The notes beneath the pieces are model-generated. The model ran no database searches. It was not told where the DNA came from and saw nothing but the letters and a program-made list of their open reading frames with translations. The position numbers were made by a program, and so were the translations under genes. 64,000 bases of DNA, from assembly GCA_964383495.1 (NCBI GenBank), contig CAYLHG010000003.1, positions 17,771 through 81,770 of the forward strand, given 5' to 3'. Positions 51,906 through 62,394 of the stretch are shown here, piece by piece. Each line of letters begins with the position of its first letter. The stretch's first letter is position 1. Source of the DNA: an uncultured Gammaproteobacteria bacterium. Its GTDB lineage: Bacteria; Pseudomonadota; Gammaproteobacteria; JABCZS01.

Positions 51906-54383
<2,478 letters not shown>

Positions 54384-54786
54384 CTACCATTTTTTGCCTC
54401 AAAAGGGGAAAAGTGATTACGAAAAGAGGTGAATATCAACACTTAACTAACTTATGCTCTAGAGGGCAAGGGATACATATGCAAGGCATTTTAACGACAC
54501 TTCGACAAAGGGAGTATGGAAAAAATCAAGCTTTAAAGAAGTCTTGAAGCAAAGGAAATTATTGATACGTTTTTAAGTAAACATGAGCCCCTTTTTTTCG
54601 ATCATTACTCAATCGGGCGAATCTTAACAACAAATTGAAGCAAATGACTATAAAGGGCGCGTAAAAGTCCTTTCTCAAGCATTGACAGAGCGAATAGCAT
54701 TCATAGAGCCTTCCATGCCGCCCCTACACTACAAGAAATGATACCCAGCATACCGCAAAGATCAAGAGGACCGAAGTAAGCAAGGA

Positions 54787-54802
54787 TGTTCCACGTGGAA
54801 CA
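54787..54802. promoter_or_regulatory. parS-like palindrome TGTTCCACGTGGAACA (perfect 16-mer)
   Basis: 15/16 match to the Bacillus-type parS TGTTCCACGTGAAACA. Symmetric. Confidence 0.6.
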
Positions 54803-54944
54803 ATGAAAGAAAAGCAGAAAGCTAGGGTAGATCGCACAAAAAAACCCCCGATTCCCTGCGCGAATCTGCCCCGCCCGGATCAAATCTGGGCCAAGCTAAA
54901 AAGGAACAGCACATGCTTAACTATAAAAAGCATTTTTTAGAAAA

Positions 54945-55130
54945 TTGAGAAACAATCAAACTGCTGCAGAAAAATTACTGTGGCGTTTTTTAGGAAAAAA
55001 ACAAAGCTTAAACACAAGTTTCACCCGTCCAAAGCCCATAGGGCCTTTTATTGTGGATTTTTATGCAAAATCTGCAAATTTAATCATTGAATTTGATGGC
55101 GGCCAACATTACGATAAATGTGAGCGCTAA
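54945..55130 (+). pseudogene. Truncated DUF559 (Vsr-like endonuclease-domain) gene remnant
   Basis: 61 aa: AAEKLLWRFL...FTRPKPIGPFIVDFYAKSANLIIEFDGGQHYD matches the DUF559 core, then stops. Confidence 0.55.
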
Positions 55131-55298
55131 TAGATAAAAATAGAGATTCGTATTTTGCGCTTTTAGTTTATCCGTATTGCGATTTAATAATTTGAAGGTT
55201 TTGTTTAGCACAGAGCCGGGGTAGCGGATGATAAGATAGCAGGCAAGCCATATTCGCGTAAGGATGGGAGTTTATTGAGCTTTAGTGAGGCGGCGAAT

Positions 55299-55314
55299 GT
55301 TCCACGTGGAACCA
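55299..55314. promoter_or_regulatory. parS-like palindrome TGTTCCACGTGGAACc
   Basis: One terminal mismatch to the local consensus. Confidence 0.55.
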
Positions 55315-55568
55315 TGAGGAAAATCGATGGGCTGGAGAGCAGATCATGCAAGAAACCTCTCGATTCGTGGAGTTTATTCCCCCGCGAAAGCGGAAACCGA
55401 CCACCCCGTCAGCATCAAGTCCAGAGCAATGCCTAGATCAAATCCGGGCCAAGCTTTTAGAGGGTAGGTGAGCAGCACAGCTGCGAAGCGGGATTCTCAT
55501 GTCACAGAGGACAAGAAAAGAGATCTAATGTCCCGTAAAGATCGATGGGGCCAAGGTAAGGATCGCAT

Positions 55569-55584
55569 GTTCCACGTGGAACTA
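55569..55584. promoter_or_regulatory. parS-like palindrome TGTTCCACGTGGAACt
   Basis: One terminal mismatch. Confidence 0.55.
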
Positions 55585-55759
55585 CAAGGAGAGCAGTGAA
55601 GCAAGTATCTTGTGCAAGAAAACCTCGTCTCATGCTCCGCGCCCGCCTGCCTCTTAAAAGGGGGCTATTAGCAATGTTATTGGTGAAACACTCCCGATTC
55701 GCGGAGTTTATTCCATGCGCAAGCACAATATGCGGGGGTTTTCTTCCTGCGTAATCATC

Positions 55760-56836
55760 TTAAACAACCGTAACCGCTCCATGTTCCACGTGGAACACCG
55801 CACGCTCACGCTCACCACCAAGATCTATTTTCTCTACGCTCGTTAAACAAATTTGGGCATCTAATATAGACAAACGCTCATTTAATAAAGCTCGCGCACC
55901 TTTATCTAGCTCAGAGGGCAGGTCATCTATCAATAATGTTGGACGTTTTCCTGTCTGCTCTATCATCCAGGATACTTGCGCCAATTGTAAGCCTGTTACA
56001 AATGTTTTTTGTTGCCCAGTAGACAACACTTGCGCAGCAGGTTTTTCGTTTACTTTGATTTTCAAATCAGCACGATGTGGGCCCGCGTGTGTGAACCCTA
56101 AAAACATATCCCGCTCAGAAGAAGCCAGCAAAGCCTCCTCTAGGCTTGTCCCTTTTGTCCAGCCCGGCTCATAGAGTAGTCTCAAATCAGAGACACCAGG
56201 CAGCCCTTCTAACGCAATTAAAAAAGAAGGTAAGCAGACATCTAAAATGGAGCAACGTATTTCATGTAACTTTTGGCCTGCTGCAGCTAATAAACTTGTC
56301 CATAAAGACAAATCAGAACGCGCACCTCCAGAAGCACGCAATGCTGCATTGCGTTGTTTCAATAAACGATGGTACTCTCGCCAAACCGCATGGAAAGAAG
56401 GTTCCACGTGGAACATTAACCAATCCAGCCATCGACGCCGCTCTTCAGGAGGATCAGCAAGCAGTTGGTAACCCTCCAAGTTGAGAATTTGAACCGGAAG
56501 CAGTTGTGCAAGTGCAGCAATAGAACCAGCAGGTTCATCATTAATGAGGTAACTATATTTCTCATGTGCATTTTTAATGCACTTCAGTGTGCAAACCAGA
56601 CCATCGTCCAATAGCACCCGAGCACCGATTTGACACGTTTTTTTTCCATGAGAGATCGCTGTAGACAGCTGGGAAGCACGAAATGATTTGCCCGTACCTA
56701 ATATATAGATGCTTTCAAGAATAGAGCTTTTTCCAGCCCCGTTGTCACCGTAAAAATAATTAAGCCCAGGGGAGAGGGTGATGCACTCAGAAGATAAATT
56801 GCGTATATGGTTGCACTGTAAGACTTCAAGCGTCAT
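55760..56836 (-). CDS. recF: DNA replication and repair protein RecF
   Basis: Walker A GDNGAGKSS, signature and Walker B regions. C-terminus VFHVEHG resembles E. coli MFTVEKG. Confidence 0.95.
   Translation of the reverse strand: MTLEVLQCNHIRNLSSECITLSPGLNYFYGDNGAGKSSILESIYILGTGKSFRASQLSTAISHGKKTCQIGARVLLDDGLVCTLKCIKNAHEKYSYLINDEPAGSIAALAQLLPVQILNLEGYQLLADPPEERRRWLDWLMFHVEPSFHAVWREYHRLLKQRNAALRASGGARSDLSLWTSLLAAAGQKLHEIRCSILDVCLPSFLIALEGLPGVSDLRLLYEPGWTKGTSLEEALLASSERDMFLGFTHAGPHRADLKIKVNEKPAAQVLSTGQQKTFVTGLQLAQVSWMIEQTGKRPTLLIDDLPSELDKGARALLNERLSILDAQICLTSVEKIDLGGERERAVFHVEHGAVTVV
55782..55797. promoter_or_regulatory. parS-like palindrome TGTTCCACGTGGAACA (perfect), inside the last codons of recF (encodes VFHVEH)
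   Basis: Seen in sequence. Confidence 0.6.
56400..56415. promoter_or_regulatory. parS-like palindrome gGTTCCACGTGGAACA inside recF coding (encodes MFHVEP)
   Basis: Seen in sequence. Confidence 0.55.
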
Positions 56837-56916
56837 TTATAAAACCCCCGACCCGCGGAGCTTCCCCGCATCATCCGCGTTCCACGCAAAAAATCCATTA
56901 GCAAGCAATCAAGCGC

Positions 56917-58029
56917 TCACAGTCTCAACGGCATTACCACATGAAAATGAGTCATGCCTGGCAAAGGCTCCCCTGAAATCACTGCAGAACAACTGGGATC
57001 AATCAGCTTTAGACACACGTTTCCTGGCGGCAAGGTGTTCAACACGTCCAATAAATACCCTGCGTTAAAACCAATTTCGAAAGGATTTCCTTGATAAGGC
57101 AAATGTATCGCCGCCTCGGCTTCTTCTTGTTCGGGGTTGTTTGCAACAATTCGAAGCAAATCGCCGCTTAATAGCAGACGAACGCCGCGATTCTTCTCAT
57201 TTGATAATGTTGCGGCTCTCATTAACCCTTGTTTTAAAGTGTCCCGATCTAACCCAAGCTCCATGGTGGCAGGAGGGGGAAGGACGCGCTTATAATCTGG
57301 GAAGCGTCCCTCTATTAGTTTTGTGATAAATTCGTGTCGATCTGACGTGATTTTGAGGGTATTGTCGTCGATTTGCACCCCAACAAGATCCATTGTATCA
57401 TTTAGTAATGATAATAATTCTGTTACCGCCTTGCGAGGGACAATCACATGGACGGGAGGGTCTGCAGGAAAAAGAGGGGTAGCGTATTCATTGACCGCAA
57501 GTCTGTGCCCATCTGTGGCGATCATCCTTAAAATTCCTCGATCTGTCTCGAACAGCATCCCATTTAGATAGTAACGGGAATCGTTATTTGCCATGGCAAA
57601 TCGTGTGGCCATCATCATCTGGCGCAATATGCTCTGAGGAAACTTTGCAGAGATTTTCGCTGAATTTCTTTGAATAGCAGGGAAATCCGCGGCAGGGAGG
57701 GTTGCTAGGACAAAGCGCGCACGACCGCTACGCAAAATGAGCCTTTCTCCTTCTAATTTGCAATGAATATCGTCGTTCTCCGCCAAACTTCTGCAAATAT
57801 CTAAAATTTTTCTTGCGGGAGCAGTGACCTCTCCAGAGGTGAATTGTCCTTCAAGCGCATCCTTTACCATTAGCTCAACTTCAAGATCGGAGGCGTTCAA
57901 CGAAATTTGTGAATTTTCAACACAGATCAACACGTTTGACAGTATCGGCATATGTTGTTTTTTTTCAGCCACCCCCGACACCTGCTGAACCAACTTAAGC
58001 AACTTCTCGCATTTTATTGTAAATTCCAT
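56917..58029 (-). CDS. dnaN: DNA polymerase III beta sliding clamp
   Basis: Three-domain beta clamp with MEFTIKCEKLLK N-terminus. Confidence 0.97.
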   Translation of the reverse strand: MEFTIKCEKLLKLVQQVSGVAEKKQHMPILSNVLICVENSQISLNASDLEVELMVKDALEGQFTSGEVTAPARKILDICRSLAENDDIHCKLEGERLILRSGRARFVLATLPAADFPAIQRNSAKISAKFPQSILRQMMMATRFAMANNDSRYYLNGMLFETDRGILRMIATDGHRLAVNEYATPLFPADPPVHVIVPRKAVTELLSLLNDTMDLVGVQIDDNTLKITSDRHEFITKLIEGRFPDYKRVLPPPATMELGLDRDTLKQGLMRAATLSNEKNRGVRLLLSGDLLRIVANNPEQEEAEAAIHLPYQGNPFEIGFNAGYLLDVLNTLPPGNVCLKLIDPSCSAVISGEPLPGMTHFHVVMPLRL

Positions 58030-59511: not shown

Positions 59512-60687
59512 ATGTCTACTTTTTTGGAGCCCTCACTCATGAAGCCTGCCTCTTATTTCACCACGGGACTTGGTTTGTTTGCGATGTTTTTTGGAGCAGG
59601 CAACGTCGTGTTCCCATTATTTGTGGGTATGAAAGCAGGCACTGGGTTAATCCCTGCCATTACCGGGCTCTTACTCACAGCAGTTGCTTTACCCATGGCA
59701 GCGGTACTTGCAATGGTAGAGTATCGCGGTGAACAAAAAGCATATTTTGCGCGTGCAGGGAAATGGGGCGGCGCACTTTTATTATTACTCTGCCTGTTTT
59801 TATTAGGGCCTTTTTTGGTTGTGCCTAGAACAGTATCTGTTGCACACTCTGCCATTTCTCAAACAATTATTCCTGTTTCACCGGAAGTATTCGGGTTAGG
59901 GTATTGCATTTTGATTGCCATTTTATCGCTCAACACGAATACCATGTTGCGGCTAATGGGTCAATTTTTCACGCCATTAATGCTGATTTTATTAGGATGG
60001 ATTATTGCAGCAGGCATTTTCACTCCCGCAACAAATACGATCGCATTAGACCACGCCGAAGGATTTTCCTTTGGATTAAAAGAGGGATATTTCACACTCG
60101 ATGCCATTGCAGCATTGGTGTTTGGACAATTTATTTATGTACAATTACGGCATCAAAGTAAAGATTTATCGCACACACATTTTAAAAAGCACGTGATACA
60201 AGCATCTTGCGTTGCAGGCTTATTATTAAGCTTGGTATATATTGGTCTTGCGTACATCAGCCACAAACAAGCAGACGCGAGCATGCTGTCATTAGATTTA
60301 AAACAAGCGTTATTAATTTTGTTGAGCGCAAAAATGTTGCCGGAAAAATTTATTGGTGTTGCAGGTATTATTATTGCTTCGGCGTGCATTACCACAGCAT
60401 GTGCATTGTCTAAAATTTTCGCGGATTATTTGCATCATTTTGTGAGGCATTACACGCGCAAAATCTCAGATACACATTGTTTATTATTTACCATTGCCAT
60501 TGCATACGGCATGAGCTTGCTAGGTTTTAACGAATTAATGGCGTATTTTTCACCTGTTATTATTGCATGTTATCCCGTTTTTATTTTGCTCACAGTGCAT
60601 GCGTTTGTGAAAGACAAAGTGAATACAAGATGGATGCCTTTTGGCGTTATCATTTGCTTAGCGCTTGGTGTGGCAGGATTAATATAA
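59512..60687 (+). CDS. Branched-chain amino acid transport system II carrier-like permease (LIVCS/BrnQ family)
   Basis: N-terminal FGAGNVVFPLFVGMKAG matches the BrnQ FGAGNxxFPPxxG signature. 12 TM. Confidence 0.65.
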   Translation: MSTFLEPSLMKPASYFTTGLGLFAMFFGAGNVVFPLFVGMKAGTGLIPAITGLLLTAVALPMAAVLAMVEYRGEQKAYFARAGKWGGALLLLLCLFLLGPFLVVPRTVSVAHSAISQTIIPVSPEVFGLGYCILIAILSLNTNTMLRLMGQFFTPLMLILLGWIIAAGIFTPATNTIALDHAEGFSFGLKEGYFTLDAIAALVFGQFIYVQLRHQSKDLSHTHFKKHVIQASCVAGLLLSLVYIGLAYISHKQADASMLSLDLKQALLILLSAKMLPEKFIGVAGIIIASACITTACALSKIFADYLHHFVRHYTRKISDTHCLLFTIAIAYGMSLLGFNELMAYFSPVIIACYPVFILLTVHAFVKDKVNTRWMPFGVIICLALGVAGLI

Positions 60688-60716: not shown

Positions 60717-61796
60717 TTATGGAATGGGGCACCCTGCCCGTTTCCCTTGAAACAACGATACCTCTTTCATAAGCTGCTCAAAATGAGAAGAGGTATCTTT
60801 GATGCAAATGAAATTAAGATCTTGTTGTTCCGATAGCAGGCCACTTAACCCCGACAGGCTTCTAGTAAATGAGTTTACTTGGTCTTGGGGGATACACAAA
60901 TCTTTTAAAGATGAAAACAGCGCAGTTTGCTCATCTTTAGGAAGCACCACAAATAATAAATCCTCGTGCATAAAAACTTTATTCACATGAAAATCTTTTA
61001 CATTTAGCATTTCTTTTAATGTGTGTTCAATCAGCAAAGAAGAAGGCGTACGATACGAACCACCCACTTTATGAGTGCTTCCTTCGCTGCTTATCTTAAA
61101 TGCAACAACCTCATTCGACAGCTCCTTACAATTGAACTGATGGAAATTAGGAGTCATGCGACCATGCGGTGAAATAAAACCTGCAGTGTGACAAAGATCG
61201 CCTAATTTTTCTATAACCTTAATTCGATTATCTCCAGAAATCTTAATGCCTAACGTTAACACAGGCGTCTCTGTCCCTGCACCAGATATATCCGGCGCAA
61301 AAGAAAATGAACATCCACTATCCTTTAGAACAGTTGCACAATACTCTCGTAATGTTAGCAGCATGAGGTTAGTTTCAAAAAACAGATCATCAAACCTTGC
61401 CGAGTCAAAGTGCCTTTTAATGGCTTCAGCGCTCACCAACATTTCTGCTGCATTTCGCGCAACGGTTGTTGAGGCGCTGGGGACAGGCGCATGCAGCTCA
61501 CTCATTTTACAACTGCTAAACAACACTTGAGCCAAATCATGCCCCAAGAAGTATGGCTCATTACCGGCGCTCCCTACCTTTTGCAAGAAGGTTGCATGAA
61601 GCTCTGACAAGCCTCCCCGGTAAACCTCGGGTAGAAAAGGCTCCGACGTAGAAGGCCACTGAATTTGGACCATACAATGGTCTTTTTGTTCGTTTTCGAT
61701 AATCAAGACCTTGACGGAATTTTTTAATGATTTAACTTGATTAATCTTATGAATAAACTCATTGATTTCTTTCTTTAGCTCTATCAACGTTGGCAT
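60717..61796 (-). CDS. Hypothetical 360-aa protein adjacent to oriC
   Basis: Start set at MPTLIELKK (ATG 61796 with GGGGGG RBS). No recognisable motifs. Confidence 0.5.
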   Translation of the reverse strand: MPTLIELKKEINEFIHKINQVKSLKNSVKVLIIENEQKDHCMVQIQWPSTSEPFLPEVYRGGLSELHATFLQKVGSAGNEPYFLGHDLAQVLFSSCKMSELHAPVPSASTTVARNAAEMLVSAEAIKRHFDSARFDDLFFETNLMLLTLREYCATVLKDSGCSFSFAPDISGAGTETPVLTLGIKISGDNRIKVIEKLGDLCHTAGFISPHGRMTPNFHQFNCKELSNEVVAFKISSEGSTHKVGGSYRTPSSLLIEHTLKEMLNVKDFHVNKVFMHEDLLFVVLPKDEQTALFSSLKDLCIPQDQVNSFTRSLSGLSGLLSEQQDLNFICIKDTSSHFEQLMKEVSLFQGKRAGCPIP

Positions 61797-61911
61797 ATTA
61801 CCCCCCTGAAAACAAACTAACCAATCTTTTGTGCATATTATCACAGCCCAGCTATAGCTTATTAAGCTTTTGAATAACTTAGCAAGTTGTTGTAAAGTAC
61901 CCTGTGTGGGC

Positions 61912-62394
61912 TGTGGATAACAACAGGTCACGCCTTGTTTATATCGAGATAAGTAGAGTTATCCACATCTTACCCCAATTAGCCCCCAAAAGAGTGATCG
62001 GTTTCTCCACAATTAAAACCGTTTTAATCTGTTGAAACATAACAAAAAAATAAACTTATCCACACAATATGCGATCCCTTATAGTAATAATATTTCTTTA
62101 TATACATATATAATATTATTGTAAATGAGCGCATACAACCCTTTTAGAACCCGAAGACATTGTCTAGCAAAAAATGGTCAGTCGAAAAATGAACGCAGTA
62201 TTTGTGTAGACAATCCATGGAACAAAATTGTTAAGTAACGAGTTATTAGATGTGCATAACCCGCCCATATTTTCCTGCCCAAGAAAACACCCACACTTAT
62301 CCACAAATGCCGATATGGCTACACCCCCTATTACCCACATCAAAGCATCGGCCTCAACTAATTAATATTAAAAGCATTAAATGGCTTATCCACA
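61912..62394. other. Putative oriC: DnaA-box cluster plus AT-rich unwinding element
   Basis: TGTGGATAA at 61912. TTATCCACA at 61959, 62056, 62297 and 62386. TTcTCCACA at 62003. AT-rich tract ~62085-62125 (tagtaataatatttctttatatacatatataatattattg). Confidence 0.7.

Follow-up and report, generated by a model that had tools for sequence, protein, structure and literature searches.

The window analysed here, a 64-kb stretch of DNA from an uncultured gammaproteobacterium, carries gyrB, recF, dnaN and dnaA on the same strand (Table 1). Within 1.63 kb of it, the 16-mer TGTTCCACGTGGAACA occurs five times, in two perfect copies and three with one terminal mismatch. Three copies lie in the gyrB-recF spacer and two within recF, the gene context given in the initial annotation of this DNA. 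All five are 16-bp inverted repeats that fit the consensus tGTTNCACGTGNAACa with 0–1 terminal mismatches, and the outermost base is the only core position that varies among them.

Table 1. Genes and sequence features around the palindrome cluster (window coordinates; parS assignments are predicted).
Feature	Position	Strand	Location	Details
gyrB	51906-54329	-		flanks the cluster
gyrB-recF spacer	54330..55759			1.43 kb in this assembly, with three parS units
parS copy 1	54787..54802		gyrB-recF spacer, unit A	perfect TGTTCCACGTGGAACA; same as P. aeruginosa parS2/parS3
truncated DUF559 gene remnant	54945..55130	+	gyrB-recF spacer	PF04480, E = 9.5e-16, profile positions 10-67 of 109, then a stop codon
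parS copy 2	55298..55313		gyrB-recF spacer, unit B	TGTTCCACGTGGAACC; same as P. aeruginosa parS1/parS4
parS copy 3	55568..55583		gyrB-recF spacer, unit C	TGTTCCACGTGGAACT (...AACT)
recF	55760-56836	-		hosts two parS sites; TIGR00611, 309.5 bits (cut-off 172)
parS copy 4	55782..55797		recF codons 347-352 (VFHVEH)	perfect; positional ortholog of P. aeruginosa parS2
parS copy 5	56400..56415 (GGTTCC...)		recF codons 141-146 (MFHVEP)	TGTTCCACGTGGAACC on the recF strand; positional ortholog of P. aeruginosa parS1
decayed third parS remnant	56875..56892		recF-dnaN gap	GCGTTCCACGCAAAAAAT, left half-site only
dnaN	56917-58029	-
dnaA	58063-59427	-
likely oriC	61912..62394		directly upstream of rpmH	5/7 of the window's perfect TTATCCACA DnaA boxes and an AT-rich stretch

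The initial annotation had also stated that the 16-mer is absent from the rest of the window and that the clustering is not due to chance, and both statements were confirmed. At up to two mismatches there are exactly five matches in the window, against an expectation of 0.02 from dinucleotide shuffling, and five copies were obtained in 0/100 shuffles. The 14-, 12-, 10- and 8-mer cores of TGTTCCACGTGGAACA are confined to the same five places in the window. A scan of the 64 kb for generic parS at three mismatches gave a single additional weak match, at 60739, and the half-site GTTCCAC has five plus-strand occurrences beyond the five sites (raw count, window).

The cluster is close to the origin of replication, as had been proposed. 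The minimum of the cumulative GC skew falls at the likely oriC, and the palindromes lie 5.5–7.1 kb from its five clustered perfect DnaA boxes and 1.6–3.3 kb from dnaA.

TGTTCCACGTGGAACA is the standard high-affinity parS site of Pseudomonas aeruginosa and P. putida (PMC4368675, PMC5098823, PMC7022226). The ParB protein of P. aeruginosa binds the same 16-mers in EMSA and ChIP-seq (PMC4368675, PMC5098823), its affinity for the ...AACC variant is only slightly lower, and a single parS copy suffices for segregation in that species (PMC4368675). Among its four sites parS1-parS4, parS2 and parS3 are TGTTCCACGTGGAACA and parS1 and parS4 are TGTTCCACGTGGAACC, identical to 16-mers of the window. The location of parS sites inside recF has been described previously, since P. 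aeruginosa parS1 and parS2 are within this gene, about 4 kb from oriC (PMC5521831, PMC3909081). They occupy the same codons as the two recF sites of the window, in the same order, with ...AACC followed by ...AACA along recF. The wider arrangement is also alike, with the sites on the dnaA-dnaN-recF-gyrB side of oriC, at a distance of a few kb, and parAB across from them, beside gidB and the atp operon. The other two strong sites of P. aeruginosa are ~10 kb further out (PA0010-PA0015 region), whereas the window has its additional sites in an expanded spacer directly downstream of recF. The host differs from Pseudomonas in GC content (42%) and in its RecF, with an identity of only about 36%, and while the P. 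aeruginosa sites are experimentally bound, those of the window are predicted from sequence.

Generic parS, as found in the Spo0J sites of Bacillus subtilis, in Caulobacter and on chromosome 1 of Vibrio cholerae (tGTTNCACGTGNAACa), shares with the window sites the 16-bp palindrome, the invariant GTT.CACGTG.AAC frame and the grouping of several, often intragenic, copies in the origin domain. It has T/A or mixed bases at positions 5 and 12, where the window sites have C/G on both arms. The initial annotation had correctly counted one difference from TGTTCCACGTGAAACA and two symmetric differences from TGTTTCACGTGAAACA, but it wrongly viewed this as an unusually symmetric parS variant, since the pan-bacterial form TGTTTCACGTGAAACA is a perfect palindrome too. 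With both forms perfectly palindromic, the window form is a common allele and not a new type. Nor is the variant novel, the CC/GG form being standard in Pseudomonas and Myxococcus: P. putida shares TGTTCCACGTGGAACA, and Myxococcus uses the near-identical TGTTCCACGTGGAACG (PMC7022226). Myxococcus xanthus parS has the same CC/GG core variant, although this organism, with its 22 sites and a system that is essential (PMC7022226), belongs to a different phylum-level lineage. As the exact sequence and the two recF positions are well documented in Pseudomonas, the locus is a routine example of its kind.

The two recF sites are read as WLMFHVEPSF (copy 5) and AVFHVEHGA (copy 4). Given the peptide FHVE and the codon usage of the window, the spelling TTC CAC GTG GAA has a probability of 0.0137 per site. 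A scan of a genome collection with RecF gave a best identity of 40% and no close relative. Both recF sites were present in 75/80 gammaproteobacterial recF loci (GC 0.38–0.70), a retrieval that is biased for the C-terminal site, which the seed peptide overlapped, the internal site being no retrieval criterion. FHVE peptides in the retrieved loci, over the same GC range, are spelled TTY CAC GTG GAA in 161 of 167 cases. Close relatives (L086, L087, L089 and L090) were retrieved through RnpA, and so free of the RecF seed-peptide bias, and all of these also carry both sites. In the RecF alignment, the FHVE codons of the window share columns with those of Pseudomonas, Stenotrophomonas, Paraglaciecola, Parahaliea and the close relatives. 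Escherichia coli has no ParABS system, and its RecF reads FHNE and FTVE at the same positions, with seven and four mismatches to parS, respectively. The improbable codon spelling and the orthologous positions bear out the earlier suggestion that the recF copies are under a dual constraint, as coding sequence and as binding sites. They indicate that the recF sites are under selection at the DNA level, beyond coding needs, and that the two sites are ancient, a pair whose conservation in many gammaproteobacterial orders reaches down to synonymous sites.

A parAB pair, which the initial annotation had named as something to look for, was found in Logan contigs (SRR8931240-42), where the genes for ParA (P0022) and ParB (P0147) are adjacent. 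ParB with an adjoining ParA fragment was found in the SRR89312xx run series, and the same series yields rnpA (SRR8931239-42) and dnaN (SRR8931239) of the window, the Logan matches to the window's dnaN, yidD and rnpA being 1–3 kb long. The NCBI records of the two proteins and of the window's exact RnpA each name a contig 134,468 bp long. Exact-product look-ups gave no record for RecF and GyrB of the window or for P0022. From these contig records and the run series we infer that the window's organism encodes the adjacent parA-parB, just outside the window. No further copy of the 16-mer was found in the rest of the 64-kb window or in the parAB-atp contigs.

Both proteins are intact, with all catalytic and DNA-binding motifs present. 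ParA carries the Walker A motif KGGVGKTT. ParB (302 aa) combines ParB_N and HTH domains with a C-terminal dimerisation domain, carries the CTP-binding motif GERRWRAA and scores 185.7 bits on TIGR00180 (cut-off 58.45). Its best PDB matches are the ParB proteins of Myxococcus and Caulobacter, the top match being 7BNK, from Myxococcus (E = 1.5e-54). Assignment as a Noc-type ParB paralog was rejected, the score being 226 bits on TIGR04285 (cut-off 315); the NBS motif and Firmicute host of Noc are likewise ill-matched to a gammaproteobacterium.

Sequence identity to proven parS sites, orthology of the recF copies, selection at the DNA level, proximity to oriC and the presence of ParA and ParB make it very likely that the five palindromes serve a ParABS partition system as the chromosome's centromere (parS) sites. 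By analogy with the protein family, dimers of ParB P0147 would use the helix-turn-helix domain to recognise each 16-bp palindrome, a specificity predicted from homology. Bound ParB would take CTP, close as a clamp and slide to adjacent DNA, so that the recF-gyrB region, a few kb from oriC, would be covered by one large nucleoprotein complex. ParA P0022 would then draw the duplicated origin regions apart. The parB gene, together with parA, would lie about 10 kb beyond oriC, opposite the parS cluster. The cluster would thereby mark the centromere of an uncultured gammaproteobacterium whose lineage uses a Pseudomonas-type ParABS system, and it supports placing oriC at about 61.9–62.4 kb; its significance beyond annotation is small.

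The sole lineage-specific feature of the cluster is the turnover of sites within a fixed centromere region, and this genome is a small, clean example of such parS gain and loss. In the close relatives the gyrB-recF spacer is 75–177 bp long and has no parS, compared with 1.43 kb and three parS sites here. The relatives carry a third parS in the recF-dnaN gap, intact in L086 and L089 at 19–22 nt from the recF start, and in the window the remnant in this gap retains one half-site (Table 1). Repeat searches and MAFFT alignment revealed three short flank similarities among the spacer units, a signal of duplication. The upstream flank of copy 1 is 70% identical to that of copy 3 over 50 nt, and the downstream flank of copy 2 (unit B) has repeats common to units A and C. 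In an ungapped, site-registered comparison of the flanks this similarity is lost, owing to small indels. The alignable flanks are short patches only, 70–92% identical, and the spacer cores keep 15–16/16 bases. The spacer sites are lineage-specific additions, probably derived from a parS-containing segment through local duplication.

The spacer units are not copies of the recF 3′ end, as their flank identity to the C-terminal recF site is at background level. A Pfam search of the small spacer ORFs returned the DUF559 fragment only, which gives no support to the idea that a conserved small protein is encoded by the repeated modules. No intact gene was found in the spacer, and the DUF559 remnant points to an insertion of foreign or selfish DNA at this place. 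Scanning the spacer for promoters and terminators gave fewer matches than shuffles, so no regulatory claim is made.

A tentative scenario, possible but not favoured by the odds, is that the recF-dnaN parS decayed to a half-site and that three copies of a parS module of ~150–250 bp were placed in a spacer, which lengthened from ~100 bp to 1.43 kb, with selection holding the cores and the flanks decaying. In that case birth and death by local duplication would keep up the number of parS sites. On the same tentative view, the great age of the recF pair would imply that a part of the RecF sequence, the valine of FHVE, is set by the centromere and not by RecF function.

A rather less probable reading is that the working centromere consists of the two conserved recF sites only, and that the spacer is decaying and its copies, brought in by recent segmental duplication or by insertion, are neutral passengers that bind ParB incidentally. 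The relatives manage with three sites and a short spacer lacking parS, one site is enough in P. aeruginosa, and the spacer here holds a truncated gene remnant, no intact gene and flanks bearing signatures of duplication. Against neutrality, the flanks are ~70% identical or unrecognisable and the cores have nonetheless stayed at 15–16 of 16 bases, which argues for purifying selection on the spacer cores. Their variation is limited to the outermost base, where ...AACC costs little affinity in P. aeruginosa, and the decay of the ancestral recF-dnaN site in this genome fits a functional replacement.

That the palindromes serve another DNA-binding protein (such as a CACGTG transcription factor or a restriction-modification system), or form the core of a dispersed repeat or MITE, with a coincidental likeness to parS, is very improbable. 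In its favour, short repeated modules surround the spacer copies, and a weak promoter-like match is found 22 nt away from copy 1, but the promoter matches as a whole are below those in shuffles and the window contains no Rfam family. The match to proven parS extends beyond the core to all 16 positions, and the recF copies are orthologous across gammaproteobacterial orders bearing ParABS and absent in E. coli. A dispersed REP or MITE family was rejected, there being five copies only, all in 1.63 kb, no other copy in the 64 kb, and no second blastn match of the spacer within the window or among the other loci retrieved. The possibility raised at first annotation that the 14-mer core belongs to a dispersed repeat likewise found no support, none of its occurrences in the window being scattered.

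It is equally hard to regard the parS sites as relics of a ParABS system lost or being lost, with the recF copies persisting through a need of RecF for FHVE: the peptide contexts F-H-x-E-P and F-x-V-E are partly kept in E. coli RecF, suggesting some constraint at the protein level, but the organism apparently encodes intact ParA and ParB, three of the copies are non-coding, where peptide constraint does not apply, all synonymous positions in recF are parS-compatible despite disfavoured codons, and the decay expected of relics is exemplified by the 4–7 mismatches of E. coli.

A search of the 64 kb window for TGTTCCACGTGGAACA, allowing up to two mismatches, returned exactly five matches, and a third mismatch added only one more weak match. 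The 8- to 14-nt cores are confined to the same five places, and the outermost base is the sole position that varies among the 16-bp copies. In dinucleotide shuffles 0.02 matches were expected, and five were reached in 0 of 100. The search reproduced the coordinates, counts and mismatch pattern of the initial annotation, which had described the cluster as parS-like.

Positions of the parS copies and surrounding features in the window
Feature	Position	Strand	Remarks
Copy 1	54787 (start)		perfect TGTTCCACGTGGAACA
Copy 2	55298 (start)		variant end ...AACC
Copy 3	55568 (start)		variant end ...AACT
Copy 4	55782 (start)		perfect TGTTCCACGTGGAACA
Copy 5	56400 (start)		variant start GGTT...
gyrB	51906-54329	minus	NCBIfam
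Truncated DUF559 remnant	54945-55130	+	Vsr-like endonuclease fold; Pfam E = 9.5e-16
Repeat modules	54840-54897, 55357-55455, 55686-55714, 56840-56868		AAAACCCCCGATTC..GCGGAGTTTATTCC and GATCAAATCYGGGCCAAGCT
recF	55760-56836	minus	NCBIfam
Left half-site GCGTTCCACGCAAAAAAT	56875-56892		all that remains in the recF-dnaN gap
dnaN	56917-58029	minus	NCBIfam
dnaA	58063-59427	minus	NCBIfam
brnQ-like transporter gene	59512-60687		between dnaA and likely oriC
404-aa ORF	60717-61931	minus	between brnQ-like gene and likely oriC
Likely oriC	61912-62394		480-bp stretch directly upstream of rpmH-rnpA-yidD-yidC

Full-text search traced the exact 16-mer to work on ParABS in Pseudomonas. In P. aeruginosa, TGTTCCACGTGGAACA is the sequence of parS2 and parS3, and TGTTCCACGTGGAACC that of parS1 and parS4; these four sites have the highest ParB affinity in vitro, any single one is enough for segregation, and the ...AACC variant, the only outermost-base variant tested, loses little affinity (PMC4368675). 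ChIP-seq located ParB on parS1-4 in vivo, with spreading that extended beyond 20 kb (PMC5098823). The 16-mers of P. aeruginosa are identical to the perfect and ...AACC copies of the window, and two of its sites (parS1 and parS2) likewise lie inside recF, about 4 kb from oriC (PMC5521831; PMC3909081). The identification of the cluster as parS is strongly supported, and its copies are very probably functional ParB sites. P. putida carries the same site, and that of Myxococcus xanthus is TGTTCCACGTGGAACG (PMC7022226). The CC/GG form, initially regarded as an unusually symmetric variant, is not unusual, because it is standard in Pseudomonas and nearly identical in Myxococcus, and the canonical TGTTTCACGTGAAACA is equally palindromic. 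The cluster is a further instance of a well-known type of element, here in an uncultured gammaproteobacterium.

Of the five copies, three are in the gyrB-recF spacer of 1.43 kb and two within recF, where they read as M141-F-H-V-E-P146 and V347-F-H-V-E-H352. The likely oriC holds five of the seven perfect TTATCCACA DnaA boxes of the window, an AT-rich segment and the cumulative GC skew minimum, placing the cluster 5.5-7.1 kb from it. This likely oriC does not adjoin dnaA but is set apart from it by two genes. One of these, the 404-aa ORF, has no family match in NCBIfam or Pfam, and its position next to the likely origin looks like a slot for variable insertions: the slot holds a 402-aa AAA_14/DUF4143 ATPase in the relatives L086-L088, an unrelated 491-aa ORF in L091, and is empty in L089.

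Eighty recF loci (GC 0.38 to 0.70) were fetched from diverse Gammaproteobacteria, including Pseudomonas, Halieaceae, Alkalimonas, Lysobacterales, Woeseiaceae, Steroidobacteraceae and Paraglaciecola. Two parS-type 16-mers, separated by about 600-640 nt, lie within recF in nearly all of them, although retrieval was biased towards the C-terminal site, as the overlapping seed peptide AVFHVEHG is present in 70 of the 80. The other overlapping seed, WLDWLMFH, is absent from all loci, so the internal site (75/80) is an independent observation. In Pseudomonas loci ...AACC comes first and ...AACA second along recF, the same order as in the window. In a RecF alignment, both FHVE motifs of the window match by column those of Pseudomonas, Stenotrophomonas, Paraglaciecola, Parahaliea and close relatives; RecF of E. 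coli, which is without ParABS, has CFHNEP and MFTVEK at these positions, and the underlying DNA differs from parS by 7 and 4 mismatches, respectively. Phe is encoded in the window by TTC in 20% of cases, His by CAC in 28%, Val by GTG in 34% and Glu by GAA in 72%; at these frequencies FHVE would take the parS spelling with a probability of 0.0137 per site and 1.9e-4 for both. The spelling TTY CAC GTG GAA is used for 161 of the 167 FHVE peptides across the loci. The dual coding and binding-site constraint proposed for the recF copies is borne out; it is both old and conserved.

The 64 kb window itself contains no ParA or ParB signature. The RnpA of the window (P0001) has database records both on a 134,468-bp NCBI contig and in Logan assemblies of SRR8931239-42; through it four relatives were found, with RnpA 76-77% identical (L086, L087, L089 and L090). 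These relatives have in common the order cytb561-gyrB-recF-dnaN-dnaA-brnQ-oriC-rpmH-rnpA-yidC-mnmE-mnmG, and in L086/L087 and L094 it goes on as gidB-parA-parB-EVE-atp. Searches with a relative's proteins recovered a ParA ortholog (P0022, 83% identical) and a ParB ortholog (P0147, 302 aa, 75% identical); for both, as for RnpA, the NCBI contig is 134,468 bp long. In Logan contigs of SRR8931240-42, P0147 is directly preceded by the exact C-terminus of P0022 and followed by EVE and atp genes. It contains the motifs GERRWRAA and IIENLQREDL, passes the ParB model TIGR00180, scores below the cut-off of the Noc model, and has structural matches to ParB of Myxococcus and Caulobacter (E = 1e-54 to 1e-50). 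The evidence assigning both proteins to the organism of the window is indirect, though specific. By analogy with the family, ParB dimers would recognise the individual palindromes, load as clamps in a CTP-dependent manner and spread, so that recF-gyrB next to oriC would be covered by a single partition complex, which ParA would segregate. Excess ParB in P. aeruginosa lowers expression around parS1-4, including the dnaA-dnaN-recF-gyrB operon (PMC5521831). It is conceivable that gyrB is similarly affected in the organism of the window; a promoter scan of the spacer gave no support for it.

The sole mildly notable feature is the apparent turnover and amplification of parS in the expanded gyrB-recF spacer, whose length in the window comes from one assembly. 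In close relatives parS occurs three times: twice within recF and once in the recF-dnaN gap, at 19-22 nt from where recF starts. The gyrB-recF spacer of L086 spans only 75 bp and that of L089 177 bp, with no parS in either. The GCGTTCCACGCAAAAAAT half-site looks like a decayed remnant of the relatives' third parS. The spacer of the window contains the truncated DUF559 fragment, which the close relatives lack; this suggests that foreign DNA was inserted, enlarging the spacer, and has since decayed. Short stretches of the spacer-unit flanks are alike (upstream, 70% identity over 50 nt between copies 1 and 3; downstream, 88% over 25 nt between copies 1 and 2 and 92% over 24 nt between copies 2 and 3), against an average of 26% for random spacer 56-mers, and the 16-bp cores retain 15-16 of 16 positions. 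By blastn the spacer matched nothing in the rest of the window or in the other loci fetched, and Rfam gave no match. The simplest reading is that a parS-bearing segment was duplicated locally, after which the flanks would have decayed and the cores been kept.

Repeat modules also lie beside the parS copies, with a related copy within the recF-dnaN gap; the small ORFs covering them have no protein family match. In the recF-dnaN gap of L089 (5170-5292), tandem GGGCGCAGCAATGCGGC-type repeats adjoin its parS. Gain of sites next to the recF pair appears to recur, since several unrelated gammaproteobacterial genomes carry extra parS directly downstream or upstream of recF: L063 (11269 and 11423), L036 (11076), L066 (11075), L076 (11152), L068 (9907) and L079 (2759).
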